Below are positions 2,934 through 43,972 of a stretch of 64,000 nt of DNA, piece after piece. The notes beneath the pieces were generated by a model. The model did no database searches. It had not been told where the DNA came from and worked only from the letters and a program-made list of their open reading frames with translations. Every line of letters begins with the position of its first letter. Within the stretch, counting starts at the first letter, position 1. The stretch is from assembly GCA_963678585.2 (NCBI GenBank), contig CAXXGA010000001.1:518228-582227 (forward strand), written 5' to 3'. The position numbers and the translations under genes were made by a program. Origin of the DNA: Breoghania sp. GTDB taxonomy: Bacteria; Pseudomonadota; Alphaproteobacteria; Rhizobiales; Stappiaceae.

Positions 2934-3968
2934 ATGACGAACATAAACCGTCGCCATTTTCTGACCGCTTCCACGCTGGGTGGAGCAGCTTCTCTTGCCA
3001 TGCCAGCCGTTGCGAACGCTGCCGACAAGGTGCAGTGGCGCATGCAGGCCCTTTGGGATGGCGGCACCACGCCTTACGAATTCGAGAAGAAGTTCGTCGC
3101 ACGTGTTGCCGAACTCACCGAAGGCAATTTCGAAATCAAGCTGTTCTCGGCAGGCCAGATCGTTCCGGCCAACCAGGCCTTCGATGCGGTGCGCAGCGGC
3201 GCCTTCCAGATGATGAAAACCTTCGACGGCTACGAAGCTGGCAAGATCCCATCTTTCGCCTTTACATCGACCATCCCCTTCGGCTTCCCCGAGTCCGATC
3301 AGTACGAGGCCTGGTTCTATGAACTCGGCGGCCTCGACATGGCTCGGGAAGCCTATGCCAAGGCGGGCCTGTTCTACATCGCGCCCACCGTCTACGGCCA
3401 GGAACCGATCCACTCCACCATCAAGATGGAGAGCATCGCGGACATGGCCGGCAAGAAAGGCCGCTTCGTAGGCCTCGCTTCCGCCGTCATGGGCGACCTC
3501 GGCGTGGCCGTCACGCCGATGGCTACGGCGGAAGTCTATACGGGTCTGGAAAAGGGCCTGATCGACTTCGCCGACCGCGGCGACCTCACCGCCAATTTCG
3601 AGGCGGGGCTCGCCGAAGTCGCGAAGTACCTGATCCTGCCGGGCGTGCACCAGCCGACCACGGCGACCAGCTATGTCGCCAATCAGGCCGCCTACAACGC
3701 CCTGCCGGACGCCTACAAGGCGGCGCTTGCCGTCGCAGCGCGTGAAATCTCCGGCTCGCTGCGCCAGCACATCCTCGTGCAGGACACCATCGTGCTCACG
3801 AAATATCGGGAAGCCGGCGTCGAGATCATCAATCTCGATCCGTCCGATATTTCCTCCAACCGCGCAAAGGCGGTGGATTCCTGGAAGAAGGCGACCAAGG
3901 GCGATCCCCTGGCGACGAAGATCGTCGACAGCCAGGTCACCTTCATGCAGTCGCTCGGCCTGCTCTGA
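2934..3968 (+). CDS. dctP: TRAP transporter substrate-binding protein (DctP family, TakP/monocarboxylate-like), Tat signal
   Basis: SD GGAGG before ATG 2934; N-terminus MTNINRRHFL...ANA; GNFEIKLFSAGQIVP, GKKGRFVG (conserved Arg), EVYTGLEKGLID. Confidence 0.9.
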   Translation: MTNINRRHFLTASTLGGAASLAMPAVANAADKVQWRMQALWDGGTTPYEFEKKFVARVAELTEGNFEIKLFSAGQIVPANQAFDAVRSGAFQMMKTFDGYEAGKIPSFAFTSTIPFGFPESDQYEAWFYELGGLDMAREAYAKAGLFYIAPTVYGQEPIHSTIKMESIADMAGKKGRFVGLASAVMGDLGVAVTPMATAEVYTGLEKGLIDFADRGDLTANFEAGLAEVAKYLILPGVHQPTTATSYVANQAAYNALPDAYKAALAVAAREISGSLRQHILVQDTIVLTKYREAGVEIINLDPSDISSNRAKAVDSWKKATKGDPLATKIVDSQVTFMQSLGLL

Positions 3969-3985
3969 GCCTGAAGGCAGCTACG

Positions 3986-4019
3986 CGCGCGGCAGGAGGA
4001 ACAATCCTCCGGCCGCGCG
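3986..4019 (+). other. Intercistronic stem-loop after dctP
   Basis: CGCGCGGC-A-GGAGGA / TCCTCC-G-GCCGCGCG inverted repeat with a 4-nt loop; no U-tract. Confidence 0.55.
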
Positions 4020-4060
4020 AAGCTTCCCTGTAAGAAAAGCCGTCACCGATCGGCCAGACC

Positions 4061-4597
4061 ATGCAAAAATTCTGCGATTTTGTTACCGGCCTCAACAGGC
4101 TGCTGTTCGCGTTCGCCGCGATGATTATTTTCGCCGTTGTCCCGATTCTGCTCTACGAGGTCATTGCACGTTACGCCTTCGACGCCCCCACCGTGTGGGC
4201 GATGGAAGCGAGTACGCTGATTTTCGGACCGCATTTCATGCTTGCAGGCCCTTATCTGCTGCATCTGCGCGGGCATGTGGCGGTCGACATCCTGAGCGAG
4301 AAGGCGCAAGGCCCGGCCAAGCGCGCCATCGAGATCTTCGCCTATATCGTTATCGCCATCTTCGCGGGCGTCTTCGCCAAGGTCAGTTGGCCGCTGGCGG
4401 TCAATGCCTGGTCGCTCGGCGAGACGAGTTTCTCCGCCTGGAACCCGCCGATCTGGTGGATGAAGTTCATCGCCCCCTTCGCCTTTGCGATGATGTTTGC
4501 CCAGGCGCTGGCGGAAGCCGCTCAGGCCCTCTTCGTTCCGGACCAAGATAAAGAGGCTGCGCCCAACGGGGCCAAGGCCAATGGGGAGGCACACTGA
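4061..4597 (+). CDS. dctQ: TRAP transporter small permease
   Basis: Four hydrophobic segments; EVIARYAF..PTVWAME, HVAVDIL motifs; lies between dctP and dctM. Confidence 0.88.
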   Translation: MQKFCDFVTGLNRLLFAFAAMIIFAVVPILLYEVIARYAFDAPTVWAMEASTLIFGPHFMLAGPYLLHLRGHVAVDILSEKAQGPAKRAIEIFAYIVIAIFAGVFAKVSWPLAVNAWSLGETSFSAWNPPIWWMKFIAPFAFAMMFAQALAEAAQALFVPDQDKEAAPNGAKANGEAH

Positions 4598-5910
4598 TGG
4601 GCTCCGAATCCGTCCTTGCCATCATGTTTGCAAGCCTCGTCGGCCTTCTGCTGACCGGCGTACCGCTGGCCTTCACGCTCGGCGCGCTGGCACTCCTGTT
4701 CACCATCACCTTGTGGGGACAGGCGGCGCTCACCGTCACCGTGCTCAATCTCTTCGACACGATGCACTCGGAATCGCTTCTGGCGATCCCGCTCTACGTG
4801 ATGATGGCGAGCGTGCTGCAACGTTCCGGCGTGATCGAAAGCCTCTACAAGGCGATGGAAATGTGGTCGCGCCGCCTGCCGGGCGGGCTTGCGGTCGGCA
4901 CCATCGCCATCTGCACGATCATCGCCGCCATGACCGGCATCGTGGGCGCCGCCGTCGCGGCCATGGGCCTGCTCGCGCTGCCCTCCATGCTGAAGCGCAA
5001 TTACAGCCCGGAACTCGCCATCGGCACCATTTGCGCGGGCGGCACGCTGGGCATCCTGATCCCCCCCTCCGTCATCACCATCGTCTATGCGGTGACGGCG
5101 CAGGCCTCCATCGGGCAGATGTTCATCGCCGGCGTCGCACCGGGGCTCCTGCTGGCCTCGCTCTATATCGGCTACATCGTTCTGCGCGCGGCGCTGAACC
5201 CGAAGCTCGCACCGCGCCCGCCTCACGAGGAAGACATCACGTGGGAAATGCGGGTTGCCTCGCTGAAATCGCTTGTGCTGCCGATGCTCATCATCTTCGG
5301 CGTGCTTGGAACTATCTACATGGGCATCGCGACGCCGACCGAGGCCGCGGCCGTGGGCGTTGCGCTTGCCTTCGGCTCCGCAGCCCTGGAGCGACATCTC
5401 AATTTCGATCTCTTGCAGGGCGTCGCCTTCGACGTGGTCAAGGTGACGACGATGATCCTCTGGATCACCATCGGCGCGCGCGCCTTCGTCGCCATCTTCA
5501 CCGGCACGGGCGGAGCCGACTTCCTGCTCGGTTTCATCGAGAACCTCGACGCCAACCGCTGGGTCGTGCTGGCGGTGATGCTGGCGATCCTGTTCTTCCT
5601 CGGCATGTTCCTGGATGAGATCGGCATCATCCTGCTGTGCGTGCCGGTGTTTCTGCCGGTCATCGATTTCCTCGATTTCGACCGGCTGTGGTTCGGCATC
5701 CTGTTCCTGGTCTCCGCGCAGATGGCCTATATCTCCCCGCCCTTCGGATACACGCTTTTCTACATGAAGGGCGTCCTTCCCGAAGGCATCGGCATGGGCA
5801 CCGTCTATCGCGCGATCATTCCCTTCATCCTGTTACAGGCATTTGGGATTTTGATCTGCGCGGCCTTCCCGGAACTGGTGCTGTGGCTTCCCAACTCCAT
5901 GATGAAATAA
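4597..5910 (+). CDS. dctM: TRAP transporter large permease
   Basis: LLAIPLY, GGLAVGTI, GTICAGGTLGILIPPS, TPTEAA, ISPPFG motifs; TGATG coupling to dctQ. Confidence 0.92.
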   Translation: MGSESVLAIMFASLVGLLLTGVPLAFTLGALALLFTITLWGQAALTVTVLNLFDTMHSESLLAIPLYVMMASVLQRSGVIESLYKAMEMWSRRLPGGLAVGTIAICTIIAAMTGIVGAAVAAMGLLALPSMLKRNYSPELAIGTICAGGTLGILIPPSVITIVYAVTAQASIGQMFIAGVAPGLLLASLYIGYIVLRAALNPKLAPRPPHEEDITWEMRVASLKSLVLPMLIIFGVLGTIYMGIATPTEAAAVGVALAFGSAALERHLNFDLLQGVAFDVVKVTTMILWITIGARAFVAIFTGTGGADFLLGFIENLDANRWVVLAVMLAILFFLGMFLDEIGIILLCVPVFLPVIDFLDFDRLWFGILFLVSAQMAYISPPFGYTLFYMKGVLPEGIGMGTVYRAIIPFILLQAFGILICAAFPELVLWLPNSMMK

Positions 5911-5932
5911 CCCGTAGAAAGCAGGACACACG

Positions 5933-7210
5933 ATGAGCGACGCGAAATCGTCCCGTATCGAAGGCCTTCACAAGATGTCCCCGGCCGAGCGCCTGCAGGC
6001 CGTGGCGAAACAGGCCGAGCTTGGCAATGCCGCAATCGATAGCCTGACCGCAGCCGCAGAGGGCCAGATCGAGCTGGCGGACCGCATGGTCGAAAACGCC
6101 ATCTCCTCCATGGCCATTCCCATCGGCGTCGCCACCAACATGGTGGTGGACGGCAGGGAAGTTCTCGTGCCCATGGCGACGGAGGAATCCTCCGTCATCG
6201 CGGCCGTCTGCAACTCCGCCAAACGTTGCCGGTCGACCGGCGGGTTCAAGACCTCGGCGAGCGGCCCCGTCATGGCGGCCCAGATCCAGCTTCTGGGCGC
6301 CAGCGACCCGGCCAACGTGCGCCTCAAGGTCTATGAGCACTACGACGAGATCCGCACCATCTGCGACGAGACCGATCCACTTCTGGTGAAGTTCGGCGGG
6401 GGTTTCCGCGATCTCGACATTCGTGTCATCGACACCGACGAAGGCCCGATGACCATCGTCCACATCATCGTGGACACCCGCGATGCGATGGGGGCCAATG
6501 CGGTCAACTCCATGGCGGAGACCCTTGCGCCGCGCCTGGCCGAATGGACCGGCGCGCGCACGCTCCTGCGCATTCTGACCAATCTCGCCGACCGCCGCGT
6601 CGTGCGCGCCCGCGCCGTGTGGCCGGTGAACGAGATCGGTGGCGAGCAGGTGCGCGACGACATGCTGTCGGCCTATCACTTCGCCGATGCCGATCCCTAC
6701 CGTGCGGCGACCCACAACAAGGGCATCATGAACGGTATTTCGGCGGTCGTGCTGGCCACGGGCAATGACACCCGCGCCATCGAGGCGGGCGCACACGCTT
6801 TTGCCGCGCGCGACGGCTGGTACCGTTCCATGTCGCGCTGGGAAGAGGATGCGCAAGGCAATCTCGTCGGCATTCTGGAAATGCCGATGGCCGTCGGCCT
6901 CATCGGCGGGGCGACCAAGATTCACCCGACCGCGCAGGCCAATATCGCCGTTCTCGGCGTGGAGACCGCCGATGCGCTCGCCCGGATCATCGTCTCCGTC
7001 GGCCTTGCGCAGAATTTCGGTGCGATGCGCGCGCTGGCGACGACCGGTATCCAGAAAGGCCACATGGCGCTTCATGCGCAGAATGTGGCGCTGATGGTGG
7101 GCGCCGTCGGCGACGAGATCGATCTGGTCGCCTCGGAACTGAAGGCGCTGGGCAAGGTGCGTCAGGATCTGGCGGAGGAAATCCTCCTGCGGATCCGCGC
7201 TGGCAAGTGA
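5933..7210 (+). CDS. mvaA: Class II (degradative-type) hydroxymethylglutaryl-CoA reductase
   Basis: MVENAI, VPMATEESSVIAA (Glu), DAMGAN, THNKGIMNG (Lys), GNDTRA (Asp), GIQKGHMALH (His): all class II HMGR catalytic motifs present. Confidence 0.93.
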   Translation: MSDAKSSRIEGLHKMSPAERLQAVAKQAELGNAAIDSLTAAAEGQIELADRMVENAISSMAIPIGVATNMVVDGREVLVPMATEESSVIAAVCNSAKRCRSTGGFKTSASGPVMAAQIQLLGASDPANVRLKVYEHYDEIRTICDETDPLLVKFGGGFRDLDIRVIDTDEGPMTIVHIIVDTRDAMGANAVNSMAETLAPRLAEWTGARTLLRILTNLADRRVVRARAVWPVNEIGGEQVRDDMLSAYHFADADPYRAATHNKGIMNGISAVVLATGNDTRAIEAGAHAFAARDGWYRSMSRWEEDAQGNLVGILEMPMAVGLIGGATKIHPTAQANIAVLGVETADALARIIVSVGLAQNFGAMRALATTGIQKGHMALHAQNVALMVGAVGDEIDLVASELKALGKVRQDLAEEILLRIRAGK

Positions 7211-8118
7211 GCGGCACCGTGACATCCGATACCGTCACCATCGTGGAGGTCGGCCCGCGGGACGGCCTCCAGGCCCACAAGGAACCGATCTCGACTGAAG
7301 CGCGGATCGGGCTGATCCAACGTCTTCGAAAGGCCGGCGTCACGCGCATGGAGGTCGGCTCCTTCGTCTCGCCCAAGGCCGTGCCGCGCATGGCGGATAC
7401 GGCGGAGGTGATGGCCGCCGTCGGCTCCGCCTCGCAAGCCGACGACATGGTCCTTGTCGCCAATGCCCGCGGACTCGATCAGGCGATTGCGGAAGGCGCG
7501 CGCACCATTGCGGTCTTCACGGCGGCCAGCGACGGCTTTGCGGAAAAGAACATCGGCTGCACGGTCGATGCCTCGCTGGAACGCTTTGCGCCTATCGTGA
7601 CACGGGCGCGGGAAAACGGCATCACCGTGCGCGGCTATATTTCCACGATCACCGACTGCCCCTATTCCGGCTCCGTCGAACCGGACGCCGTGGTCCGCGT
7701 CGCCAATGCGCTGACCGAGATGGGCTGCGGCGAGATTTCGCTTGGCGAGACGCTGGGCCGCGCCACTCCACGGCGGATCGCCGCCGTCATCGAGGCGGTG
7801 GCGAAAGACGTGCCCATGAGCAGCATTGCCGCCCATTTCCACGACACCTACGGCATGGGCGTCGCCAATGTGTGGGAAGCGGTGCGCCTCGGCGTGCGCA
7901 CGGTGGATGCGGCGGCAGGCGGTCTCGGCGGCTGCCCGTTTGCGCCCGGCGCAACCGGCAATGTGGCGAGCGAAGACGTCATCTACATGCTGCACGGTCA
8001 GGGCTATGAGACCGGCATAGATATGGATGCGCTTCTGGATGCGGCGGCCTATTGCAAGGACGCCATGGGCATCGCCCCGGTGAGCCGGGTCTATCACGCC
8101 ATCCGGCGCTGCATCTGA
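7207..8118 (+). CDS. mvaB: Hydroxymethylglutaryl-CoA lyase
   Basis: EVGPRDGLQ, EVGSFVSPKAVP, HFHDTYG, GLGGCPFAPGATGNVA; GTGA overlap with mvaA stop. Confidence 0.93.
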   Translation: MSGTVTSDTVTIVEVGPRDGLQAHKEPISTEARIGLIQRLRKAGVTRMEVGSFVSPKAVPRMADTAEVMAAVGSASQADDMVLVANARGLDQAIAEGARTIAVFTAASDGFAEKNIGCTVDASLERFAPIVTRARENGITVRGYISTITDCPYSGSVEPDAVVRVANALTEMGCGEISLGETLGRATPRRIAAVIEAVAKDVPMSSIAAHFHDTYGMGVANVWEAVRLGVRTVDAAAGGLGGCPFAPGATGNVASEDVIYMLHGQGYETGIDMDALLDAAAYCKDAMGIAPVSRVYHAIRRCI

Positions 8119-8142
8119 GCCGGGCACGCCTTGAAGGACACG

Positions 8143-8177
8143 ACCGCCGGCCTCGTTGCGCGAGACCGGCGGTTTTT
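8143..8177 (+). terminator. Intrinsic terminator after mvaB
   Basis: ACCGCCGG...CCGGCGGT stem followed by a T-run. Confidence 0.7.
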
Positions 8178-8182: not shown

Positions 8183-8626
8183 CTATTCGGCGGCGCTGCT
8201 TTCTCTCCATTCCAGAACGAGCTGGGTCTGCGTGACGACCGCACACAGCTTGCCGTCGCCGCGGGTCACCTTCACTTCCCAGATCATTGTGGTACGCCCG
8301 ACATGGTAGGGCGTGACCGTGGCGCGGGCGATGTCCCCGATACGGATCGGGCGCATGAAATTGGTCTTGCTCTCCAACGTCACCGTGCTCTGGCCTTCGC
8401 CGAGATTCAGAAAGGTGGCCGTGCCGCAGACATTGTCGGCAAGCGACATCAGCGCCCCGCCGTGCAGCACGCCGTTGCGGTTGCCCAGCCACGGCTCAAC
8501 CACCATTTCGCCCACCACTTTTTCCCGGCTGTGAGAGACCGTGCGCATCTTCAAGGCGTCCGCAAAGGGAGACAGCGTATCCGCCACCTGCTGCATCCGG
8601 TCTTCTTCGTCCATCGTCACCGTCAT
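8183..8626 (-). CDS. PaaI/hotdog-fold acyl-CoA thioesterase
   Basis: NRNGVLHGGALMSLADNVCG, TLESKTNFMRP; start likely 8626 or 8614. Confidence 0.85.
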   Translation of the reverse strand: MTVTMDEEDRMQQVADTLSPFADALKMRTVSHSREKVVGEMVVEPWLGNRNGVLHGGALMSLADNVCGTATFLNLGEGQSTVTLESKTNFMRPIRIGDIARATVTPYHVGRTTMIWEVKVTRGDGKLCAVVTQTQLVLEWRESSAAE

Positions 8627-8888
8627 TCGACCTGCCCGTTTCCGTTTTCTGCCGCAAGGTTTAGGACGCGCGCGGGCCCTTGGCAAAGCTTTTCGACCGA
8701 TCGGAAACGTGCATTTTCGCTCTCGATACACCACACAGGCGAAACGGCACTGGTGTCTCAGGGGCAGGTAACGCTAATGTCCTGCACAAGACGATCTGTC
8801 ATCTGAAAAACGGGTCAAAAAAGACACGGCATTCGCCGCGCGGGAGGAGTGCGGCAATCGGACCCTTGGGGAAATCGGGAGGAACTAC

Positions 8889-9776
8889 ATGAGCAGCATC
8901 GCATTCATCGGCCTTGGCAATATGGGCCTGCCCATGGCCATCAATCTGGCCAAGGCGGGCCACAGCGTGACGGCCTTCGATACGGTGGCAGAGGCCGTCG
9001 CGAAAGCGGAAGCCGAAGGCATCAAGGCGGCGCCGGATGCTGCCTCCGCCGTGGCGGACGCCGAGTTCGTCGTCACCATGCTGCCGAACGGCCAGATCGT
9101 GCTGAAGGTCTACGAGGCAATCGTTCCCGCCGCCAAGGCGGGCGCGGTGCTGATCGACTGCTCCACCATCGACGTAGAAAGCGCGCGCAAGGCCCATGCG
9201 ATGTGCGATGCGGCGGGGCTCCTGTCGCTCGATGCGCCGGTTTCAGGCGGCACGGGCGGGGCGGCGGCAGGGACGCTGACCTTCATGACGGGCGGAAAAC
9301 GCGAAGCCTTCGACAAGGCGAGCCCGATCCTCGACGTGATGGGCGGCAAGCTCGTCTATTGCGGCGAAGGCGGTGCGGGACAGGCGGCCAAGATCTGCAA
9401 CAACATGCTGCTCGGCATTTCCATGATCGGGGCCTGCGAAGCCTTCGCACTGGCCGAAAAGCTCGGCCTTGACGCGCAGGCCGCCTTCGACGTGATCTCC
9501 ACTTCCTCAGGTTATTGCTGGTCGGTCAACACCTATTGCCCGGTTCCCGGCGTCGGCCCGCAAAGCCCCGCCGACAACGGCTACAAGCCCGGGTTTGCGG
9601 CCGAACTGATGGCGAAGGATCTGGGTCTTTCCCAACAGGCCGCAGACGGCACCGGTCAAGCGACGCCGATGGGCGCCCGCGCGCTGGAGCTTTACAGCCG
9701 CTTCCTTGAAGAAGGCGGCAAGGGCAAGGATTTCTCCGGCATGATCGAATATCTCAAAACCGCCTCGCGCGCGTAG
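8889..9776 (+). CDS. mmsB: 3-hydroxyisobutyrate dehydrogenase
   Basis: IAFIGLGNMGLPMA, DAPVSGG..GA.AGTLTFM.GG, AKICNNMLLG, YCPVPG, YKPGFAAELM.KDL. Confidence 0.9.
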   Translation: MSSIAFIGLGNMGLPMAINLAKAGHSVTAFDTVAEAVAKAEAEGIKAAPDAASAVADAEFVVTMLPNGQIVLKVYEAIVPAAKAGAVLIDCSTIDVESARKAHAMCDAAGLLSLDAPVSGGTGGAAAGTLTFMTGGKREAFDKASPILDVMGGKLVYCGEGGAGQAAKICNNMLLGISMIGACEAFALAEKLGLDAQAAFDVISTSSGYCWSVNTYCPVPGVGPQSPADNGYKPGFAAELMAKDLGLSQQAADGTGQATPMGARALELYSRFLEEGGKGKDFSGMIEYLKTASRA

Positions 9777-14539: not shown

Positions 14540-14599
14540 AGGGCATCGGTGAATCTGCCGATCCTGCCCTCTTGCCCACCAGTTTGCCGAAGACCCCGC

Positions 14600-15142
14600 A
14601 TGATCAAGACACGCCCTCTCGTCCCTGAGGCCTTCGCCCCCTTCGGTCAGGTCCTGCGCAGCGGTGCGGGCGATACGAAGATGATCCGCGACGGGCAGGT
14701 CCTCATGACCAAGACGCTCGCAGAGGTCGACCATGAGCCTGAGGGCAGCGATTTCGCCATCGACTTTCATGACGTACCCGCGCTGTCCGGTCCGCTCGTC
14801 ATACGGGAGGCGGAACGGCACCTGCAGTCGGCGCAGGTCTTCGTGCCGGTAAACGCCTCGCGCTACCTCGTTGTCGTATGGCCGGGAGACCCCGGCCCCG
14901 GCGTGGAGCCCATCGCCTTCATCGCGGGCGCGCAGGACGTGATCGTCTACAATCCCGGCACCTGGCATCACGGCATCGTGGCGCTCGACCGGCGCGCGGT
15001 GTTCACCTCGCTTTTCTGGCGGCCCAATGACGGGCGACCCGACACGATCTTCCAGACGCTGCAAGAGCCCATCAAGGTGGACTGGATGTCCATGCCCGCA
15101 GATCTCAGCGGGCGCGAAGAAAGCGCCTTCGGCGGGTGGTGA
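14600..15142 (+). CDS. Ureidoglycolate lyase (AllA)-family protein
   Basis: PL..EAFAPFGQV, ERH...QVFVP, YLVVV, Y.PGTWHH cupin motifs of the AllA family. Confidence 0.7.
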   Translation: MIKTRPLVPEAFAPFGQVLRSGAGDTKMIRDGQVLMTKTLAEVDHEPEGSDFAIDFHDVPALSGPLVIREAERHLQSAQVFVPVNASRYLVVVWPGDPGPGVEPIAFIAGAQDVIVYNPGTWHHGIVALDRRAVFTSLFWRPNDGRPDTIFQTLQEPIKVDWMSMPADLSGREESAFGGW

Positions 15143-15349
15143 AACCTCACCCTCGCCCGCTGACCGGCAGAAGCTGAGTCGTTTTCTCCCCAACCATCTG
15201 CGCGAACGTCGTCGGATGACGCTGCGGATTCACCGTCTCGGCGAAATGCCGGAACGTGCAGACATCGTCACACTTGATCTGGCGGCGGGTATTGGGGAAA
15301 ACGAGTGCCACAGGCGCTTCCACGCCCCTCCCCAATCCGGAACGGTTTC

Positions 15350-16645
15350 ATGGTCGATCTTCTCATTCGCAACGCCAACCTGCCCGACGGGCGGGAGGGC
15401 ATGGACATTGCTGTCACGAACGGCCTCATCACCGCCGTCGAACATGACATTCCCACCGAGGCGGGAAGCGTGGTGGAAGCCGACCGGTGCCTCGTCACCC
15501 CGCCCTTCGTCGACCCGCATTTCCACATGGATGCGACCCTGTCTCTCGGGCTGCCGCGGATGAACGTCTCCGGCACCTTGCTTGAGGGTATTTCGCTGTG
15601 GGGCGAGCTGCGCCCCATGCTGAGCCGGGAAGCGGTGGTCGAACGCGCACTCAAATATTGCGATCTCGCTGTCTCGCAGGGGCTTCTGGCCATCCGCTCG
15701 CATGTGGACGTATCCGATCCGAAGCTCGTCACCGTGGAAGCGCTGCTTGAGGTTCGCGAGAAGGTCGCGCCCTATATCGACCTGCAGCTCGTCGCCTTCC
15801 CGCAGGACGGCTACTACCGCTGCCCGGAGGCTGCCGATGCGCTGACCCGCGCGCTCGATATGGGCGTCGACGTGGTGGGCGGCATCCCGCATTTCGAGCG
15901 CACCATGGAAGAGGGCCGCAAGTCGGTGGAGGCGCTGTGCCGGATCGCGGCGGAACGCGGGCTTCGCGTCGATATGCATTGCGACGAGAGCGACGATCCA
16001 ATGTCGCGCCACATCGAAACGCTGACGGCGGAAACCGTGCGCCACGGACTTCAGGGCCGGGTGGCCGGTTCGCACCTCACCTCCATGCACTCCATGGACA
16101 ACTACTACGTCTCCAAGCTCATCCCGCTGATGGCGGAGGCGCAGATACACGCCATCCCGAACCCGCTCATCAACATCATGCTTCAGGGGCGGCACGACAC
16201 CTACCCCAAGCGCCGCGGCATGACCCGTGTGCGCGAACTGATGGAAGCCGGGATCAACGTCGCCTTCGGCCACGACTGCGTGATGGACCCCTGGTACTCG
16301 ATGGGCTCCGGCGACATGCTGGAAGTCGCCCATATGGCGGTTCACGTGGGGCAGATGGCTTCCATGGAGGATCGCCGCAAGCTCTTCGACGCCGTCACGG
16401 TCAACTCCGCCCGCGTCATGGGACTTGAAGGCTACGGACTGGAGCCGGGCTGCAACGCCGACATGGTGATCCTGCAGGCGCGCGATCCGCTGGAGGCCCT
16501 GCGCCTTAAGGCGACGCGGCTGGCGGTGATCAGACGTGGCAAGCTGATTGCCAGAACACTGCCGCGGGTGGCCAGCCTCAACATTCCCGGGAGGCCGGAT
16601 ATGGTCGACCCTGCAAGTTACGCCCCTGGCGCGGGCGACGAATAG
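15350..16645 (+). CDS. codA: Cytosine deaminase (CodA)-family amidohydrolase
   Basis: PFVDPHFHMD, VAFPQDG, GGIPHFE, MHCDE, GSHLTS, GHDCVMDPWY. Confidence 0.9.
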   Translation: MVDLLIRNANLPDGREGMDIAVTNGLITAVEHDIPTEAGSVVEADRCLVTPPFVDPHFHMDATLSLGLPRMNVSGTLLEGISLWGELRPMLSREAVVERALKYCDLAVSQGLLAIRSHVDVSDPKLVTVEALLEVREKVAPYIDLQLVAFPQDGYYRCPEAADALTRALDMGVDVVGGIPHFERTMEEGRKSVEALCRIAAERGLRVDMHCDESDDPMSRHIETLTAETVRHGLQGRVAGSHLTSMHSMDNYYVSKLIPLMAEAQIHAIPNPLINIMLQGRHDTYPKRRGMTRVRELMEAGINVAFGHDCVMDPWYSMGSGDMLEVAHMAVHVGQMASMEDRRKLFDAVTVNSARVMGLEGYGLEPGCNADMVILQARDPLEALRLKATRLAVIRRGKLIARTLPRVASLNIPGRPDMVDPASYAPGAGDE

Positions 16646-16714
16646 CCGCCGCTTTCTGCGGCGATCTCGCTGTGCATGACGCTTTTCTATGCAGTGGCTT
16701 GACTTGACAAATTT

Positions 16715-16730
16715 TTGAGCAACCGGTCAA
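16715..16730. promoter_or_regulatory. RutR-like operator
   Basis: TTGAGCAACCGGTCAA matches the 16-bp RutR consensus TTGACCANNTGGTCAA with 2 mismatches; lies just downstream of a TTGACA hexamer, upstream of a nucleoside ABC operon. Confidence 0.55.
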
Positions 16731-16787
16731 GATCACGCTCGACAACAGGCGGCCAGAAGGTCCGCCGCAAACCGGGGAAATAGGGAT

Positions 16788-17789
16788 ATGGCGATCCTGA
16801 ATTCAATGACACGCCGCCGCGTACTTGCGGCCGGTGCAGCACTTGGCGCAGGCCTTGCGGTGACCGTTGCCGGTCACGGCGCAGCCTTTGCCGCCGACGT
16901 TCTCAAGGTTGCGGGCATTCATGCCTCGCCGGTGGAGAACGCCTGGAACTCGCGTCTTCACGAAGCTCTGCTGGCAGCCGCGAAGGACGGTGTCATCGAG
17001 TATGAATTCTCCGAAGGCATTTCCGGCACTGACTACCCGCGCGCCATGCGCGAATATGCGGAAAAGGGCGTCGATCTGGTGATCGGCGAATCCTATGCGG
17101 TCGAACGCGAAGCGCGTCAGGTCGCCAAGGACTATCCGAACGTGGCCTTCGTGATGGGCTCCTCGGGCGAGGCCTCCGGCGACAATTTCGGCGTCTTCGG
17201 CACGTGGAACCACGACGGCGCGTATCTCGCGGGCATGCTGGCCGGCAAGATGACGAAGACCAACATCGTCGGCTCCGTCGGCGCGATCCCGATCCCGGAA
17301 GTCAATCAGCTCATCAACGCCTTCAATGCGGGCGTGAAGGAAGTGAACCCGGAAGCCAAGACGCTCGTCTCCTTCATCGGCACCTTCTTCGATCCCCCGA
17401 AGGCGCGTGAAGCGGGTCTTGCCGAAATCGACGCGGGCGCGGATATCCTGTTCGGCGAGCGCATCGGCACGGCGGATGCCGCCAAGGAGCGCGGCATCAA
17501 GGCCGTCGGCTCGCTGATCGACTACACCGACCGCTATCCCGACACCGTCTTCGCCAATGCCATGTGGTACTTCCGCCCGATCCTCGATGCGGCCATCGCG
17601 GACGTGAAGGCCGGCAAGCCGGTCGGCAAGAACTACACCGCCTACGGCCTGATGAAGGACGGTGGTTCCGACATCGTCTACACCAAGGGCGTTGCGCCTG
17701 CAGATGCCGAAGCGGCGATGGAGAAGCGCCGCGCCGAGATCAAGGCCGGCACCTTCGAGGTTCCGCGCGACATCAGCGAACCGAAGTAA
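16788..17789 (+). CDS. BMP/PnrA-family nucleoside ABC transporter substrate-binding protein
   Basis: Tat-like TRRRVLAAG signal; YLAGMLAGKMTKTNIVGSVG, FNAGVKEVNP, GADIL motifs. Confidence 0.88.
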   Translation: MAILNSMTRRRVLAAGAALGAGLAVTVAGHGAAFAADVLKVAGIHASPVENAWNSRLHEALLAAAKDGVIEYEFSEGISGTDYPRAMREYAEKGVDLVIGESYAVEREARQVAKDYPNVAFVMGSSGEASGDNFGVFGTWNHDGAYLAGMLAGKMTKTNIVGSVGAIPIPEVNQLINAFNAGVKEVNPEAKTLVSFIGTFFDPPKAREAGLAEIDAGADILFGERIGTADAAKERGIKAVGSLIDYTDRYPDTVFANAMWYFRPILDAAIADVKAGKPVGKNYTAYGLMKDGGSDIVYTKGVAPADAEAAMEKRRAEIKAGTFEVPRDISEPK

Positions 17790-17825
17790 GACACAGCCGT
17801 TTGAGGCTTGAGGGTCACTGAGACC

Positions 17826-19259
17826 ATGACAACACAGAACGACGCGATGGCCCTTGCCGAGGCCATCGCGTCTTCACGTGTAAGCGCGCTTGAAGCCATG
17901 GAGGCATCCCTTCAGGCTGCGCGCGAGCACGCGGATCTCGGCGCAATCGACGTGCTCGTGCCCGAACTGGGCCTTGCCCGCGCAGACGCGCTGGAAGAGG
18001 AGCGTCACGACAATCCCGAACGATTTGCCGCCCGCCCCTTTGCAGGCGTCCCGACGCTCGCCAAGGATCTGGGCAGCCCCTTTGCCGGAATTCCCGGTGC
18101 CGCCGGTTCCAACGCACTGCGCGGCCTATCCGACGGAAGTGCGGATTCCGAGTTCGCACGGCGTGTGCGCGAGACGGGCCTCGTGCCCTTCGGCAACACG
18201 CTGGTGCCGGAATTCGGCATGTCCGTTTCCACCGAACCTCTGGGCCGTGCGCCGACGCGCAATCCGCTCGACCCCACCCGCACGGCGGGCGGCTCGTCCG
18301 GCGGATCCGCGAGCGCGGTCGCTTCCGGCATCGTCGCCATCGCGCACGCCACCGACGCCGGTGGCTCCATCCGAATTCCCGCCGCCTGTTGCGGCCTCAT
18401 CGGGCTGAAGCCCTCGCGCGGGGTCATGCCCGGCGCACCCGATTTCCGCAACCATCTGGGCGGGCTGGCGGCCGAGCTTGCCGTCTGCCGCTCCATCCGC
18501 GATGCGCGCCTTGCCTTCGATCATCTGGTGGGAGACGCCCGCGGCCCCGCACCGGAACCCGTGATCGAGCAGACCTGGAGCAGGTTCGCAAGCAACGAGC
18601 CGCGCACCATCGGGCTCATCACCGACTGCGGGCCTTATGCGATTTCCGCCGCGCGCGCCGATGCGGTCGCAAGCACGGCGGCGCTTCTGGAAGGCGCGGG
18701 CCATCGAATCGTCGATCTGCCCTTTACCCGGATCGCCGGGCTGGTGGAGACGGGCCGCAAGGCGTTCGACCGGATCATCTGCGCCTTCACGGCGGCCATG
18801 TTTGCACAAGGCACGCTCGATGAAGGCAAGATCGAGCCGCTGACCCGCGCCGCCCTTGCCCGCGGACGGGCCATGCCCGCGCATGAACTGTGGAGCGCGA
18901 TGCAAGAAGGCGTGCTTGCCGCCCATGCGATGTGGCAGATCTTCGACGAGGTCGATACTGTGCTCGCACCGATGCTGGCGGATGCACCGCCGCATCTCGG
19001 CGCCTTTCCGACAGATCACGACGACGTCCAAGCGCATTGGGACCGCATGACCGCTTTTGCCCCGCTCGCCTCTCTGGCCAACATCACCGGCGTGCCTGCG
19101 CTCAGCATGCCCGTGGGCGCAGATGGCGACGGGCTGCCGCTTCCCGTGCAACTCCTCGCCCCGATGGGAGCCGACCGCCGCCTTCTCTCGCTTGGCGCAA
19201 CGCTTGAGGCGCTCAGCCCGTGGACCCACCGCTTCCCCGTCGCGGGGCTTGCCTCATGA
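17826..19259 (+). CDS. Amidase-signature family hydrolase
   Basis: GVPTLAKDL (Lys), AGGSSGGSA (cis-Ser), ATDAGGSIRIPAACCGLIGLKPSRG (Ser), ANITGVPALSMP. Confidence 0.9.
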   Translation: MTTQNDAMALAEAIASSRVSALEAMEASLQAAREHADLGAIDVLVPELGLARADALEEERHDNPERFAARPFAGVPTLAKDLGSPFAGIPGAAGSNALRGLSDGSADSEFARRVRETGLVPFGNTLVPEFGMSVSTEPLGRAPTRNPLDPTRTAGGSSGGSASAVASGIVAIAHATDAGGSIRIPAACCGLIGLKPSRGVMPGAPDFRNHLGGLAAELAVCRSIRDARLAFDHLVGDARGPAPEPVIEQTWSRFASNEPRTIGLITDCGPYAISAARADAVASTAALLEGAGHRIVDLPFTRIAGLVETGRKAFDRIICAFTAAMFAQGTLDEGKIEPLTRAALARGRAMPAHELWSAMQEGVLAAHAMWQIFDEVDTVLAPMLADAPPHLGAFPTDHDDVQAHWDRMTAFAPLASLANITGVPALSMPVGADGDGLPLPVQLLAPMGADRRLLSLGATLEALSPWTHRFPVAGLAS

Positions 19260-20782
19260 GCGATACGCCCGTCCTGCGCCTTTCCAATATCTCCAAGACC
19301 TTCGGCACGACGGTGGCCAACGATGCCGTCTCCATCGATCTTGCCCATGGCGAGGTGCTGGCGCTTCTGGGTGAGAACGGAGCGGGCAAGACGACGCTGA
19401 TGTCGATCCTCTTCGGCCACTACACGCCCGATACGGGCACGGTGGAGGTGGAGGGTCGGGAGCTGCCGCCGGGCCGCCCGAGGGCTGCCATCGATGCGGG
19501 CGTCGGCATGGTTCACCAGCACTTCTCGCTGGCGCCGAACCTGACGGTTCTGGAAAACGTCATGACCGGAACGCAGAGCCTCGTAAAGCTGCGCTCCGAC
19601 ACGAAAACCGCGCGCGCGAAACTTGCCGAACTGGCCGACCGCTTCGGTCTCGCGGTCGATCCGGATGCGCGACTCGGCGACCTTTCCGTCGGCGAGCAGC
19701 AGCGCGTGGAAATTCTCAAGGCGCTCTATAACGACGCGAAGATCCTGATCCTCGACGAGCCGACCGCCGTGCTCACCAATGTGGAGGCCGAACGGCTTTT
19801 CGCCACCCTGCGGGAGATGGCGCGCCAGGGCCTGTCGCTGATCTTCATCTCGCACAAGCTGCACGAGGTGATCGCAGCCGCCGACCGCGTCGTCGTCCTG
19901 CGCGGCGGCAAGGTGGTGGCCGAGAGGCAGGCCTCTGAGACCACCAAGGACGAGCTGGCGGAACTGATGGTGGGCCGCCGCATCGCGCGGCCCAAGCGCG
20001 AGGCGGGCAAGCCCGGTGCGATGGTTCTGGAAGCCATCGGCGCATCGCTCACCGTTGATGACGTCGCCCGGCTGACCGACCTGAATTTCAAGCTCCATGC
20101 GGGCGAAACGCTCGGCATCATCGGCGTTTCCGGCAATGGGCAGGCCCAGCTCGCCCAGATGGTTTCCGGCCTCGCCACCCCCACCGAAGGCGAGCTGCGG
20201 CTCTTCGACGAGCCGATCACCGAGGGCGTGGCAGCCCTCGTTGAGGCCGGGGTCGGGCGCATTCCCGAAGACCGCAATTCCGAAGGGGCCATCGGCGAGA
20301 TGACCCTTTGGGAGAACGCGATCCTTGAGCGGGTCAGAAGCCCGCGGTTTTCGAAGAACGGCCTCGTCAACCGGCAAGCGGCGCGCGCCTTCGCCAATAC
20401 GATCATCGAGGAATTCGACGTGCGCGGCGGGGTGCCCGACCGACGCACGCGGCTTCTTTCCGGCGGCAACATGCAAAAGCTCATCCTCGGGCGGAACCTG
20501 CACGATGCGCCGAAGCTGCTCATCGCCGCCCAACCCACGCGCGGGTTGGATGAAGGCGCGATTGCCGCCGTCCATACCCGAATTCTGGAAGCACGCAACA
20601 ATGGCGCAGCGGTTCTGCTGATCTCGGAGGATCTGGAAGAGGTGATCAATCTGGCCGACCGCATCCAGGCCATCGTCAAGGGACGGCTTTCCCCGCCGCT
20701 TGCAGCCGAAGAAGCGGATGCGCGCAAGCTCGGCCTGATGATGGCGGGCGACTGGAGCAAGGAGGTCGTCCATGCGTCTTGA
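19256..20782 (+). CDS. Nucleoside/simple-sugar ABC transporter ATP-binding protein (two ABC domains)
   Basis: LLGENGAGKTT, LSVGEQQRVEILK, ILDEPTAVL, LSGGNMQK, AQPTRGLD. Confidence 0.92.
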   Translation: MSDTPVLRLSNISKTFGTTVANDAVSIDLAHGEVLALLGENGAGKTTLMSILFGHYTPDTGTVEVEGRELPPGRPRAAIDAGVGMVHQHFSLAPNLTVLENVMTGTQSLVKLRSDTKTARAKLAELADRFGLAVDPDARLGDLSVGEQQRVEILKALYNDAKILILDEPTAVLTNVEAERLFATLREMARQGLSLIFISHKLHEVIAAADRVVVLRGGKVVAERQASETTKDELAELMVGRRIARPKREAGKPGAMVLEAIGASLTVDDVARLTDLNFKLHAGETLGIIGVSGNGQAQLAQMVSGLATPTEGELRLFDEPITEGVAALVEAGVGRIPEDRNSEGAIGEMTLWENAILERVRSPRFSKNGLVNRQAARAFANTIIEEFDVRGGVPDRRTRLLSGGNMQKLILGRNLHDAPKLLIAAQPTRGLDEGAIAAVHTRILEARNNGAAVLLISEDLEEVINLADRIQAIVKGRLSPPLAAEEADARKLGLMMAGDWSKEVVHAS

Positions 20783-21821
20783 ACGCCGCGCCCACAGGCC
20801 GTTCGGGCTGGTCGTCGCCTCGCCGATCATCGCCATCTTCGCAGCGCTCGCCATTTCCGGCGTGCTGATCGCGCTGGCAGGCGCGCCCGTTCTCGAAGCC
20901 TATTACCAGATCGGCGTCGGCTCCTTCGGTTCCCGCCTTGCCGCGACCGAAACCCTGACGCGGGCGACCCCGCTCATCTTCACCGGCCTCGCCGCCGCCG
21001 TCGCCTTCCGCGCGCAGGTCTGGAACATCGGCGCTGAAGGTCAGTTCTTCATCGGCGCAATTGCGGTCGCCGCCTTCGGCGCGGAACTCACCGCAGGCAT
21101 GCCGCCCGCGCTCGCCATCCCCGTGCTGATGCTGATCGGGGCGATTGCAGGTGCCTTCGTGCTGCTGGTACCGCTCGGCCTGCGCCTGCGTTTCGGCGTC
21201 GACGAGGTGGTGACCACGCTGCTTTTGAATTTCGTGGCCGTGCTCTTCGTCTCCATGATGATCGAGGGCCCGCTGAAAGACCCGCTCGCCTTCGGCTGGC
21301 CGCAGTCCGTTCCGGTCGCCGACAATGCGCTCCTGCCGAAGATCATCGCGCGCACGCGTCTGCACATAGGATTGATTGTCGCCATCGTCATCGCCGTCAT
21401 CGTCTATGCGGTTCAGGCGCGCACGGTCTTCGGGCTTCAGTCCAAGGCCGCGGGCCTCAGCCCAAGGGCCGCGCGATTTGCGGGCGTGCCGCTGGCGTCC
21501 ACGCTCATCAAGGTCGCGTGTCTTTCCGGCGGGCTTGCGGGCCTTGCGGGCGCGGTGGAGGTGATGGGCGTGAAAGGCTATGTCACGACCGACCTTTCGC
21601 CCGGTTTCGGCTATTCCGGCATCATCGTTGCCATGCTCGCCAACCTGCACCCGGTGGGCGTGGTGGCCGCCGCCATCTTCACCGCGGCGATGTTCGTGGG
21701 CGCTGACGGCATGAGCCGGGCCATCGGCATTCCCAGCTACATCGCTGACGTGACGGTCGCGCTTTCGCTGCTGACCATGCTGGTCGCGATCTTCTTCACG
21801 CAGTACAGGATCCGCAAATAA
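20772..21821 (+). CDS. Nucleoside ABC transporter permease
   Basis: TPLIFTGLA.AVAFRA..WNIGAEGQ, GVDEVVTTLLLN, GFGYSGIIVAMLA.LHP. Confidence 0.9.
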   Translation: MRLERRAHRPFGLVVASPIIAIFAALAISGVLIALAGAPVLEAYYQIGVGSFGSRLAATETLTRATPLIFTGLAAAVAFRAQVWNIGAEGQFFIGAIAVAAFGAELTAGMPPALAIPVLMLIGAIAGAFVLLVPLGLRLRFGVDEVVTTLLLNFVAVLFVSMMIEGPLKDPLAFGWPQSVPVADNALLPKIIARTRLHIGLIVAIVIAVIVYAVQARTVFGLQSKAAGLSPRAARFAGVPLASTLIKVACLSGGLAGLAGAVEVMGVKGYVTTDLSPGFGYSGIIVAMLANLHPVGVVAAAIFTAAMFVGADGMSRAIGIPSYIADVTVALSLLTMLVAIFFTQYRIRK

Positions 21822-22762
21822 TGGAGATCCTCGAAATCTTCGCCTCCGCCGGTCTGTGGGCTGCCGTGCTGCGCATCGCAACCCCGCTGATCTTCGGCAC
21901 GCTGGGCGCGCTGCTCTGCGAACGCTCCGGCGTCCTCAATCTCGGGATCGAAGGCATCATGACCTTCGGCGCGATGATCGGCTGGCTCGCCGTCTTCAAC
22001 GGCGCGGATCTGTGGACCGGGCTGCTGGTCGCCGCCATTTTCGGCGCGGCCTTCGGCCTGCTTCATGCGGGCCTCACCGTCACGCTGGGCCTTTCCCAGC
22101 ATGTGACCGGCCTCGGCATCACGCTCTTTGCAAGTTCGCTGAGCTATTTCCTCTTCCGGCTGATCGTACCGGTGGCGGGCACGCCGCCGACAATCGAGCC
22201 CTTCCAGCCGATCGACATTCCGGGCTTGAGCGACCTGCCCTTCATCGGGCCGGCGCTCTTCACGCAGACAGCGCCGACCTATCTCGCCATCGCGCTGGCC
22301 GTCGTGCTGGCCTATGCGCTGTTCTTCACGCCGCTTGGGCTTGCGGTGCGCATGACGGGCGAGAACCCGCATGCGGCGGAAGCGCAGGGCGTCAATCCGA
22401 TCAAGGTGCGGTACGGCGCGATCATGCTGGGCAGTGCCTTGATGAGCGTCGGCGGCTCGTTCCTGACGCTTTCGGCCTTCAACTCCTTCTTCCCCACCAT
22501 GATCCAGGGCCGCGGCTGGGTGTGCATCGCGCTTGTGGTCTTCTCCTCGTGGAAGCCGAGCCGCGCGCTTCTCGGCGCGCTGCTCTTTGCGCTGTTCGAC
22601 GCTTATCAGCTTCGCCTGCAGACGGTCGTCGGCAAGGCGGTGCCCTATCAGCTCTTCCTGATGGTGCCCTACGTGATGTCGATTGTCGCTCTGGTGGTGA
22701 TGGCACGGCGCGCACGCGTGCCTCAGGCGCTGATGCAAGCCTATCGGCGCGGCGAGCGGTAA
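21821..22762 (+). CDS. Nucleoside ABC transporter permease
   Basis: ERSGVLNLGIEG, GLAVRMTGENP.AA, GRGWVCIALV, PQALM. Confidence 0.9.
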   Translation: MEILEIFASAGLWAAVLRIATPLIFGTLGALLCERSGVLNLGIEGIMTFGAMIGWLAVFNGADLWTGLLVAAIFGAAFGLLHAGLTVTLGLSQHVTGLGITLFASSLSYFLFRLIVPVAGTPPTIEPFQPIDIPGLSDLPFIGPALFTQTAPTYLAIALAVVLAYALFFTPLGLAVRMTGENPHAAEAQGVNPIKVRYGAIMLGSALMSVGGSFLTLSAFNSFFPTMIQGRGWVCIALVVFSSWKPSRALLGALLFALFDAYQLRLQTVVGKAVPYQLFLMVPYVMSIVALVVMARRARVPQALMQAYRRGER

Positions 22763-34065: not shown

Positions 34066-34788
34066 ATGGATCAGCACACCGACCAGAACGGACAGACGCT
34101 CGGCCACGGCCATGCGCGCACGGCGCCTGCGCAGCTTTGGGGCGTGCAGAGCCCCGACCGGCTGCGCCGCGAACGGAGAGCCGCGCGCCGTCATTCGACG
34201 CGCGTGCGCTGGCTCAAGCGCCTGTTGCCTGCCGTCAGCGGTCTGATCGTTCTGGGCGTGGTGGGCGCGATGGCGCTGCGCAACCTGCTACCGGGCTTCG
34301 ATCTCGGCGCAATCGACATCACCACCGAAGGCATCGTCATGAGCAATCCGGAACTGTCGGGCCATGACGGGGAGCGTTCCTACTACGTCACGGCGAGCCG
34401 TGCGATCCAGAGCCTGATCAATCCCAAGATCATCAATCTGGACGAAATCGACGCACGGGTGACGTTGAGCGCAGACGAATGGGTCGCCTTCACGGCGCCT
34501 TTCGGGGTCTATGACAGCGGCCAGGAAACCCTGAAGCTTTCCGACGGCATCGCGCTCAAATGGAGCCGGGGTTACGATGTCACTCTGAGCGGAGCCAAGA
34601 TCGACCTGAAGGACGGAACAATCCTGTCGGACGATGCGATTTTCGTGACATCCGAGCAGGGGAATTTCGAAGCCGGCAAGATCTCGGTTGCAGATAACGG
34701 CTCCAGCGTCCAATTCTCTCAAGGCGTGAAGATGACGCTTCACCCGGCCAATCTGGATCACAAAACCCAAGGGGACCAAGCCCAGTGA
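34066..34788 (+). CDS. lptC: LPS export protein LptC
   Basis: ARRHSTRVRWLKRLLP single TM anchor, M.NPELSG, beta-jellyroll-like region; synteny with lptAB. Confidence 0.85.
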   Translation: MDQHTDQNGQTLGHGHARTAPAQLWGVQSPDRLRRERRAARRHSTRVRWLKRLLPAVSGLIVLGVVGAMALRNLLPGFDLGAIDITTEGIVMSNPELSGHDGERSYYVTASRAIQSLINPKIINLDEIDARVTLSADEWVAFTAPFGVYDSGQETLKLSDGIALKWSRGYDVTLSGAKIDLKDGTILSDDAIFVTSEQGNFEAGKISVADNGSSVQFSQGVKMTLHPANLDHKTQGDQAQ

Positions 34789-35351: not shown

Positions 35352-35478
35352 TCCGCCCCGCTCCGCTCATCGCGCCATCATATGACGCGCTGCGGCTCGA
35401 CACGTCCGCACAAAATCTGTACGAGAAATCAGCCGGTTCGCGTGCCGGTCACCGGCATCCATTTCGAGACACGAACCG

Positions 35479-36297: not shown

Positions 36298-36462
36298 CGG
36301 TTTTCGCGCGCGCCGGTGCGGTTCATGCGCGGGTCGATGGCCCAAGACATGGCGCCTCCGGCTCTCCCGGTGCGCAAACCGCCCCCCTCTTTTCGTAGCA
36401 TTGATAACGCGAAGGCGGTTTACACTTTGAACGCGGTTTGCGCGTAGTGTAAGAAACTGATT

Positions 36463-36478
36463 AGCAAGAATTGGACCA
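36463..36478 (-). promoter_or_regulatory. Sigma54 (-24/-12) site on the antisense strand upstream of rpoN
   Basis: Minus strand TGGTCCAATTCTTGCT fits TGG-N8-TTGC(W). Confidence 0.6.
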
Positions 36479-36507
36479 GTTTACCGCAACAGGGTCGCCC
36501 CGCGCCT

Positions 36508-38991: not shown

Positions 38992-39061
38992 CCTGATAAC
39001 AGGCACCAAGGTCGCCCGCGCGCACCTCGGTACGCGCGGCGACCATATACGGGCTTACATT

Positions 39062-43085: not shown

Positions 43086-43190
43086 GATGTTTTGCTTTCC
43101 TCTCACGGCCAGTCCTCTCCGGCCGTCGCTTACCGGCCGCGCACGACGCCTGGCGCGCGCGGCGATTTTCTCGTTTGCTCGCTCGCCCGT

Positions 43191-43964: not shown

Positions 43965-43972
43965 CGCCTCCC

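Follow-up and report, generated by a model that had tools for sequence, protein, structure and literature searches.

A TRAP transporter operon with HMG-CoA reductase and lyase genes in Breoghania as a candidate mevalonate scavenging system

Described systems and the layout of the operon

Among the described systems, the one closest to that reported here is the mvaAB pair of Pseudomonas mevalonii, in which the gene for a class II NAD-dependent 3-hydroxy-3-methylglutaryl coenzyme A (HMG-CoA) reductase is directly followed by the gene for HMG-CoA lyase. The known regulator in P. mevalonii is MvaT, and we know of no transporter gene that has been assigned in this organism. The same reductase-lyase order, with conserved catalytic residues, is found in a 64-kb stretch of the genome of Breoghania sp. 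(assembly GCA_963678585.2, contig CAXXGA010000001.1, positions 518,228 to 582,227; this whole stretch is called the window below). Unlike in P. mevalonii, the pair is here preceded by co-directional genes for a tripartite ATP-independent periplasmic (TRAP) transporter, and a gene for a MocR-type regulator is transcribed divergently from the resulting dctP-dctQ-dctM-mvaA-mvaB operon. We consider this TRAP system the strongest candidate so far for a natural importer of mevalonate. Binding-protein-dependent TRAP systems are importers, and the solute-binding subunit DctP of the window resembles TakP (2HZL) and TTHA0766 (2ZZV) in its Pfam family, its twin-arginine signal, its R177/Y100 clamp and its D214/Q240 cation site. 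Its genomic partner, however, is HMG-CoA reductase and not lactate or branched-chain keto-acid metabolism. Mevalonate importers have also been engineered, namely MCT1 F360C and yeast JEN1 Y180C/G (PMC12405511); these mutants are unrelated monocarboxylate carriers of the major facilitator superfamily type, whereas the system in the window would be natural and binding-protein-dependent.

The gene set has been seen before, while the functional proposal appears to be new. The supplement of Suvorova and Rodionov (2016) contains a MocR group (Daci_0288 / SPOA0164 / Bpet3338) with a predicted regulon of COG1257 (MvaA), COG4663, COG4665/COG3090, COG4664 and a transcription factor (TF), which was predicted in Ruegeria pomeroyi, Oceanicola and Bordetella petrii (PMC5320631). 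This catalogue gives the group no substrate, effector or function, and mevalonate does not occur in the main text (PMC5320631). The window has the same gene set with the lyase added, and the R. pomeroyi cluster was confirmed in our analysis. A 2023 transporter inventory of R. pomeroyi names no substrate for SPOA0160-0162, which it calls a 'TRAP dicarboxylate transporter', and mevalonate is absent from this paper and its accessible supplements; nor is mevalonate among the ligands listed in a 2018 review of TRAP and tripartite tricarboxylate transporters (TTT). Our searches of the open-access literature brought up no study in which mevalonate is connected with a TRAP, TTT or ATP-binding cassette (ABC) transporter or with a MocR regulator. 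They also gave no bacterial gene assignment for mevalonate transport, in line with the preliminary description of this locus, whose author, working from the DNA sequence, knew of no characterised mevalonate transporter gene. A binding-protein importer that is co-regulated with catabolic enzymes is a known kind of system, and it is the predicted substrate that is new.

All five genes lie on the + strand in one direction and span 2934-8118. The TRAP transporter is encoded by dctP (2934-3968; solute-binding subunit; PF03480, 142 bits), dctQ (4061-4597; small membrane subunit; PF04290, 90 bits) and dctM (4597-5910; large permease subunit; PF06808, 264 bits; TIGR00786, 311 bits against a cut-off of 268). 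All three components score above the Pfam gathering scores, which gives the make-up of a DctP-type TRAP system, and dctQ follows dctP in every related locus. These genes are followed by mvaA (5933-7210; class II NAD-type HMG-CoA reductase; PF00368; TIGR00532, 420 bits against 260) and mvaB (7207-8118; HMG-CoA lyase; PF00682; NF004283, 379 bits against 246). A ribosome-binding site, GGGAGG, precedes dctP at 2922-2927, and a spacer of 92 nt (3969-4060) separates dctP from dctQ. The dctQ stop and the dctM start share 1 nt (TGATG), the gap between dctM and mvaA is 22 nt, and the mvaA stop overlaps the GTG start of mvaB by 4 nt (GTGA). Between mvaB and a convergent thioesterase gene there is an intrinsic terminator on the + strand (8144-8177), a G+C-rich hairpin formed by CCGCCGGCCTCG and CGAGACCGGCGG and followed by TTTTT (local fold -44.7 kcal/mol, z = -2.1). 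The preliminary description had reported five co-oriented genes with overlapping or 22-92 nt junctions and one terminator after mvaB, and these coordinates and junctions were found again. Its statement that the window is without HMG-CoA synthase or mevalonate kinase also agrees with our Pfam sweep of the ~70 predicted open reading frames (ORFs) of these 64 kb, in which no HMG-CoA synthase, GHMP kinase, diphosphomevalonate decarboxylase or isopentenyl diphosphate isomerase was detected; eight small ORFs had no Pfam match in this sweep.

The dctP-dctQ spacer folds with a minimum free energy of -43.4 kcal/mol (z = -4.1), and none of 200 shuffled sequences folded as well. It contains a very stable intercistronic hairpin on the + strand (3986-4019) without a T-run. 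In most of 90 orthologous loci the corresponding spacer (median length 87 nt) is likewise strongly structured, with a median of -0.40 kcal/mol per nt. The hairpin is probably an mRNA-stability or partial-attenuation/termination element that favours an excess of the binding protein over the membrane subunits.

Conservation of the transporter-reductase module

Our proposal is supported by the linkage between the DctP orthogroup and the reductase. A metagenome scan with DctP yielded 80 loci at 62-86% identity, which were regarded as informative when they extended for at least 3.4 kb downstream of dctP, and redundancy was removed by collapsing the loci at 95% DctP identity, leaving 55 clusters. 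A reductase gene adjoined the dctP orthologue in all 62 loci with room for it and in 7 shorter loci as well, and the 11 of the 80 loci that lacked it all end too early. After the removal of redundancy, the reductase was adjacent in 48 of 48 informative clusters, the remaining 7 of the 55 ending within 2.4 kb of dctP. Two gene orders occurred among the 48 clusters, DctPQM-MvaA in 39 and MvaA-DctPQM in 9. The DctP orthogroup is thus tied to the reductase without one informative exception. The arrangement goes far beyond what chance would give, with the same neighbours in all informative related loci, and the predicted functional coupling of the TRAP system to the reductase is supported as strongly as gene-neighbourhood evidence allows.

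The lyase behaved differently from the reductase. A neighbourhood search for the TRAP-mvaA-mvaB combination had been suggested in the preliminary description, which treated the three as one unit; the pairing of TRAP and mvaA held in all informative loci of the DctP orthogroup, while mvaB turned out not to belong to the core, being adjacent in only 9 of the 55 metagenome clusters. An orthologue of the divergent regulator was present in 39 of the 55 clusters and in most genome loci also. The conserved unit is therefore MocR regulator, importer and reductase, with the lyase as an add-on. The earlier view of the TRAP system as the importer of a mevalonate-catabolic pathway is strengthened by these comparisons, with mevalonate as the predicted ligand.

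In a reductase-led scan, for which one genome per species was used and 80 loci were compared with the window proteins by tblastn, the complete module of regulator, DctPQM and reductase was found in Stappia, Azospirillum, Marinobacter and a metagenome-assembled genome (MAG) labelled Saprospiraceae. In Breoghania the DctPQM-reductase-lyase part was found again, but the 4 kb upstream of it gave no regulator match in tblastn. The window reductase shares 91% identity with its counterpart in B. corrubedonensis, and for the window DctP the identity to the Breoghania sp. JC706 protein is 86%. An adjacent lyase gene was seen in this tblastn set in Breoghania and Stappia only; it also adjoins the cluster in Nitratireductor. 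The DctP-led search added the same module in Simplicispira (Betaproteobacteria) and in Thalassospira and Tistrella (Alphaproteobacteria), with a permuted order in Tistrella, where the regulator is divergent from reductase-DctPQM. On the megaplasmid of R. pomeroyi, the regulator (SPO_RS20660) is divergent from reductase-DctP-DctQ-DctM, and DctP is 64% identical to that of the window. The genes that flank the module are unrelated from taxon to taxon (Stappia, Azospirillum, Marinobacter, Simplicispira, Thalassospira, Tistrella and Ruegeria), and the genomes with this linkage include alpha-, beta- and gammaproteobacteria. Gene calls in the related G+C-rich loci were passed through a codon-position G+C filter, since longest-ORF calls gave antisense shadow ORFs. 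The Saprospiraceae-labelled locus (L010, Bacteroidota) has a DctP that is 69% identical to that of the window and AT-rich intergenic DNA, and its module reflects either horizontal transfer or a binning error. Two genes next to the operon in the window, for a hotdog thioesterase (8183-8734, - strand) and a 3-hydroxyisobutyrate dehydrogenase (8889-9776; TIGR01692, 408 bits), were considered as operon partners and dropped, as they are not conserved beside the cluster even in Breoghania and Stappia.

Where members of the reductase clade lack this TRAP system, another uptake system is usually adjacent, and in proteobacteria usually the same divergent regulator. A TctA permease with a TctB-like small protein stands beside the reductase in Variovorax, Rhizobium, Gordonia, Vreelandella, Burkholderia cenocepacia and several actinobacteria, a TctC (Bug-type) receptor in Curvibacter, an ABC-type Peripla_BP_6 binding protein in Afipia, Bradyrhizobium and a Xanthobacteraceae MAG, and a distantly related TRAP system in Salipiger and a Rhodospirillaceae MAG. 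In B. cenocepacia (NZ_CP091013.1, locus L168, 5453-10222) the MocR gene is divergent from reductase, TctB-like and TctA genes, a layout that is repeated in Variovorax (L069, L078), Rhizobium sp. (L035), Gordonia (L077) and Vreelandella (L014). The NAD(H)-dependent reductases of B. cenocepacia, Delftia acidovorans and R. pomeroyi belong by score to the same clade as the window enzyme, and the genes of R. pomeroyi and B. cenocepacia both lie in MocR-reductase-importer clusters, although the importer of B. cenocepacia is of the TTT and not of the TRAP type. The transporter neighbours of these three reductases are not discussed in those parts of the enzyme and metabolic-engineering literature on them that were accessible. 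Such swapping of importers around a constant enzyme is what would be expected for the catabolism of an external substrate.

Several of the variant loci carry further genes. A gene of the SMP-30/gluconolactonase type follows the TctBA genes in Gordonia (L077, 10266-11288), and a homologue directly follows mvaA in a lichen Rhodospirillales MAG (L013, 3583-4749); its product may be a mevalonolactone hydrolase, a hint that would fit the use of mevalonolactone. The actinobacterial loci have a PucR/GAF regulator in place of MocR. In Sciscionella (L063, 4955-15235), the genes for such a regulator and for the reductase are followed by those for hydantoinase/oxoprolinase A and B, for a family III CoA-transferase and for an enoyl-CoA hydratase, after which comes the lyase gene; the locus suggests a longer pathway around the same reductase. 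Four Rhodobacteraceae loci (L022, L024, L027 and L029) carry a separate reductase group, 56-58% identical and without the MocR/TRAP context; a gene for a 630-aa protein resembling acetyl/propionyl-CoA synthetases lies near three of them, in L024 directly upstream of the reductase gene.

Enzymes, binding protein and regulator

The best solved relatives of the window reductase are those of P. mevalonii (1QAX, 435 bits), D. acidovorans (6DIO, 424 bits) and B. cenocepacia (6P7K, 402 bits), of which the last has reportedly been termed oxidative in the title of a paper. The window reductase shares 51% identity with that of P. mevalonii, and its residues E85, K263, D279 and H377 align with E83, K267, D283 and H381, the catalytic residues of the P. 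mevalonii enzyme. Window D148 aligns with P. mevalonii D146, the Asp that excludes NADPH, and from this alignment a preference for NAD(H) is predicted here. The R. pomeroyi reductase strongly prefers NADH and oxidises mevalonate with NAD+ and CoA, and the role of its D154 in NAD(H) preference has been demonstrated by experiment (PMC12292504). We had considered the 'degradative' name of the TIGR00532 model as a sign of direction and dropped it, since archaeal class II reductases, whose role is presumably biosynthetic, are matched by this model too and are as similar to the window enzyme (49-56% identity) as the P. mevalonii reductase is. We infer the oxidative direction instead from the translational coupling of the lyase, the importer and the lack of pathway partners. 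The lyase is assigned as an HMGL-like TIM barrel above its family-specific cut-off, with related synthases and aldolases far below their own cut-offs, and its sequence contains EVGPRDGLQ, HFHDTYG and GGLGGCPFAPG, presumably the motifs of the HMG-CoA lyase family.

DctP belongs to COG4663, the TakP-TTHA0766 subfamily of cation-dependent monocarboxylate binders, and starts with a signal of the twin-arginine type (NRRHFL ... AVANA|AD). Its best solved relative is the Thermus thermophilus calcium-lactate protein TTHA0766 (212 bits), followed by TakP (131 bits). In TakP the ligand is contacted by Arg177 and Tyr100, and the cation by Gln156, Glu214 and Glu240 (PMC1839085), while in TTHA0766 mutation of Tyr80 or Asp444 (biosensor numbering) weakens or abolishes lactate binding (PMC8648760). 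By alignment, the carboxylate/cation core is kept in the window protein as R177, Y100, D214 and Q240, and R177, which maps to TakP Arg177 and TTHA0766 R178, is invariant in 119 orthologues. Six mapped pocket positions are unlike those of both the lactate and the 2-oxo-acid binder: the two solved proteins have Leu/Tyr where the window protein has G99, His/Thr at Y154, Asn/Gln at E157, Phe/Trp at R215, Asp/Pro at T243 and Met/Val at T245. The first five are invariant among the 119 orthologues (69-100% identical to the window DctP) and T245 is present in 116 of them. On this mapping, DctP is placed inside the TakP/TTHA0766 subfamily but in neither of its specificity groups, and its predicted pocket is the signature of a distinct, conserved specificity. 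With a smaller residue at position 99 and side chains of greater polarity, the pocket would be suitable for a larger dihydroxy acid; our predicted ligand is (R)-mevalonate.

The divergent regulator gene (1352-2761, - strand) and its operator are parts of the system that the preliminary description had missed. The regulator combines an N-terminal GntR winged helix with a fold-type-I aminotransferase-like domain for pyridoxal 5'-phosphate (PLP; PF00392 and PF00155), and its PLP-lysine motif TFSKTL is intact and aligns with TFSKIL of aminotransferases. As it scores below the cut-off of every named MocR equivalog in NCBIfam (PdxR, GabR, EhuR and MocR), we regard it as none of these. The longest ORF begins at TTG 2830 and would cover two predicted operator boxes. 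Since the orthologues are 461-472 aa long and align only from residue 29-43 of this ORF, the start is probably GTG at 2761, with ATG at 2809 as a further possible start; with the start at 2761, the intergenic region is ~170 nt.

Within the divergent promoter region we predict a MocR operator (2796-2879, no strand assigned), in which ATTGTGCC (2796-2803, +), GGGACAGT (2816-2823, inverted), ACTGTCCC (2843-2850, +) and ATTGTCCC (2854-2861, +) are joined by a degenerate box, ATGACACT (2872-2879, inverted). Exact matches to ACTGTMCC occur twice in the 64 kb, both times in the regulator-dctP intergenic region. Sixteen loci from alpha-, beta- and gammaproteobacteria and actinobacteria have the same boxes, with the same 20-nt and 27-nt spacing, in the intergenic region between regulator and operon, where the box density is 10.9 per kb against 0.55 per kb elsewhere in the same loci (~20-fold).

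The rest of the window contains several recognisable gene groups. A block at 41880-46046 encodes on the - strand the thiolase PcaF (722 bits against 605) and two pcaIJ-like CoA-transferase subunits, and divergent from it lies a gene for an IclR regulator of the PcaR type (330 bits against 285). We considered the CoA-transferase and thiolase genes of this block (41.9-44.9 kb) for acetoacetate activation and rejected them, because the thiolase is PcaF and the divergent regulator PcaR, which assigns the genes to the beta-ketoadipate pathway. At 34785-39526 there is a conserved lptA-lptB-rpoN-hpf-ptsN cluster, encoding an LptA-like protein, an ABC ATPase, sigma-54, a ribosome hibernation factor and a protein of the phosphotransferase system EIIA(Ntr) type. 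Genes at 14549-22762 encode a ureidoglycolate-lyase-like protein, an amidohydrolase, a binding protein of the Bmp/PnrA type, an amidase, an ABC ATPase and two permeases, and look like a block for the uptake and breakdown of nucleosides or ureides. A B12-binding radical SAM protein of 570 aa with a DUF4070 domain is encoded at 48082-49794, after a TetR regulator gene and a small ORF without Pfam match.

Proposed pathway, alternatives and implications

Taken together, we consider it likely that the locus is a regulated operon for the scavenging of external mevalonate as a carbon and energy source. In this pathway DctP would be exported, probably by the twin-arginine translocation route, and would bind (R)-mevalonate in the periplasm through an Arg/Tyr carboxylate clamp and a bound cation. 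DctQM would accept the ligand from DctP and import it at the expense of an ion gradient. MvaA would then convert mevalonate, CoA and 2 NAD+ to HMG-CoA and 2 NADH, and MvaB would split HMG-CoA into acetyl-CoA and acetoacetate; in the many genomes in which mvaB is not adjacent, this split would be performed by the housekeeping lyase of the leucine pathway. The MocR regulator, acting on the ACTGTCCC boxes in the shared promoter region, would control the operon.

Several points weigh against the scavenging proposal. The case is built from sequence and gene context, which give the gene identities, the catalytic residues, the operon layout, the conserved operator and the invariant linkage, and from which the ligand, the direction of flux, the role and effector of the regulator and the ecological source of mevalonate are inferred. 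The pocket residues of DctP were mapped by alignment at ~30-45% identity. Searches for sequencing runs brought up contig-type runs of DNA or unclear origin and none that clearly came from RNA. The reductase sequence is by itself silent on direction, the archaeal enzymes being about equally similar, and a route for acetoacetate activation was not found nearby in the window. Regulators of the MocR type are known to respond to amino compounds or PLP, and mevalonate is without an amino group, so that a conserved MocR regulator fits awkwardly; either ligand sensing works in another way in this MocR subfamily, or a different compound is the true inducer.

This last point bears on the alternative that we take most seriously, although we think it unlikely: the TRAP system would import not free mevalonate but another carboxylate linked to the reductase, such as a precursor, amino-modified or changed in some other way, from which the cell makes mevalonate or HMG-CoA, or a compound that is sensed by MocR. 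A PLP-dependent regulator with an intact PLP lysine, from a family whose effectors are amines, would fit such a substrate, the closest solved binders take lactate or 2-oxo acids and not C6 dihydroxy acids, and the hydantoinase A/B, family III CoA-transferase and enoyl-CoA hydratase genes of some actinobacterial loci suggest a longer pathway. Yet the minimal module consists of regulator, importer and reductase and has no extra converting enzyme, the reductase of the R. pomeroyi cluster acts on mevalonate directly, and the pocket positions that set it apart from the lactate and 2-oxo-acid binders are fixed, or almost fixed, within the orthogroup.

It is far less probable that the reductase is biosynthetic, making mevalonate from HMG-CoA for isoprenoids, with the transporter and the lyase as mere neighbours. 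Class II reductases are reversible, and the similarity of the archaeal enzymes would be compatible with this direction. Alphaproteobacteria, however, generally make isoprenoids by the 2-C-methyl-D-erythritol 4-phosphate route, genes for HMG-CoA synthase, for mevalonate and phosphomevalonate kinase and for the decarboxylase were not detected in the window, and no such pathway genes were recognised among the annotated neighbours in related loci. The NAD-specifying Asp is conserved, and the reductase shows translational coupling to a lyase by which HMG-CoA is destroyed, besides being invariably linked to an importer. A generic organic-acid TRAP system that came to lie beside mvaAB by chance might be imagined, given that TRAP systems are numerous in these genomes and that public annotation has this one as a C4-dicarboxylate or mannitol/chloroaromatic transporter. 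The adjacency, which persists in all informative clusters despite DctP identities of 62-86%, two gene orders and unrelated flanks, together with the common divergent regulator and its conserved operator, effectively refutes the idea that the neighbourhood is meaningless.

The scavenging proposal may extend well beyond Breoghania. It is possible, if rather doubtful, that the MocR-reductase-importer module is a widespread mevalonate-scavenging regulon of marine and soil Proteobacteria, with interchangeable TRAP, TTT and ABC importers, with other regulators in Actinobacteria, and with a MocR protein that senses a non-amino ligand. If true, free mevalonate or mevalonolactone would be regularly exchanged in these communities, and MocR would sense mevalonate or mevaldehyde, its aldehyde intermediate, a new class of effector for the family. 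Under the scavenging proposal, the NADH-dependent reductases of bacteria in which no mevalonate pathway is expected, such as B. cenocepacia, D. acidovorans and R. pomeroyi, would also gain a physiological function, and R. pomeroyi SPOA0160-0162 a substrate. A natural high-affinity importer could be of use in isoprenoid bioproduction, in co-cultures and in DctP-based mevalonate biosensors; a biosensor has already been built on the lactate-binding relative TTHA0766 (PMC8648760). Finally, the DctP orthogroup is present in Tara Oceans and other marine assemblies, which leads to the idea that mevalonate, putatively of eukaryotic or archaeal origin, may be a labile compound in marine dissolved organic matter.

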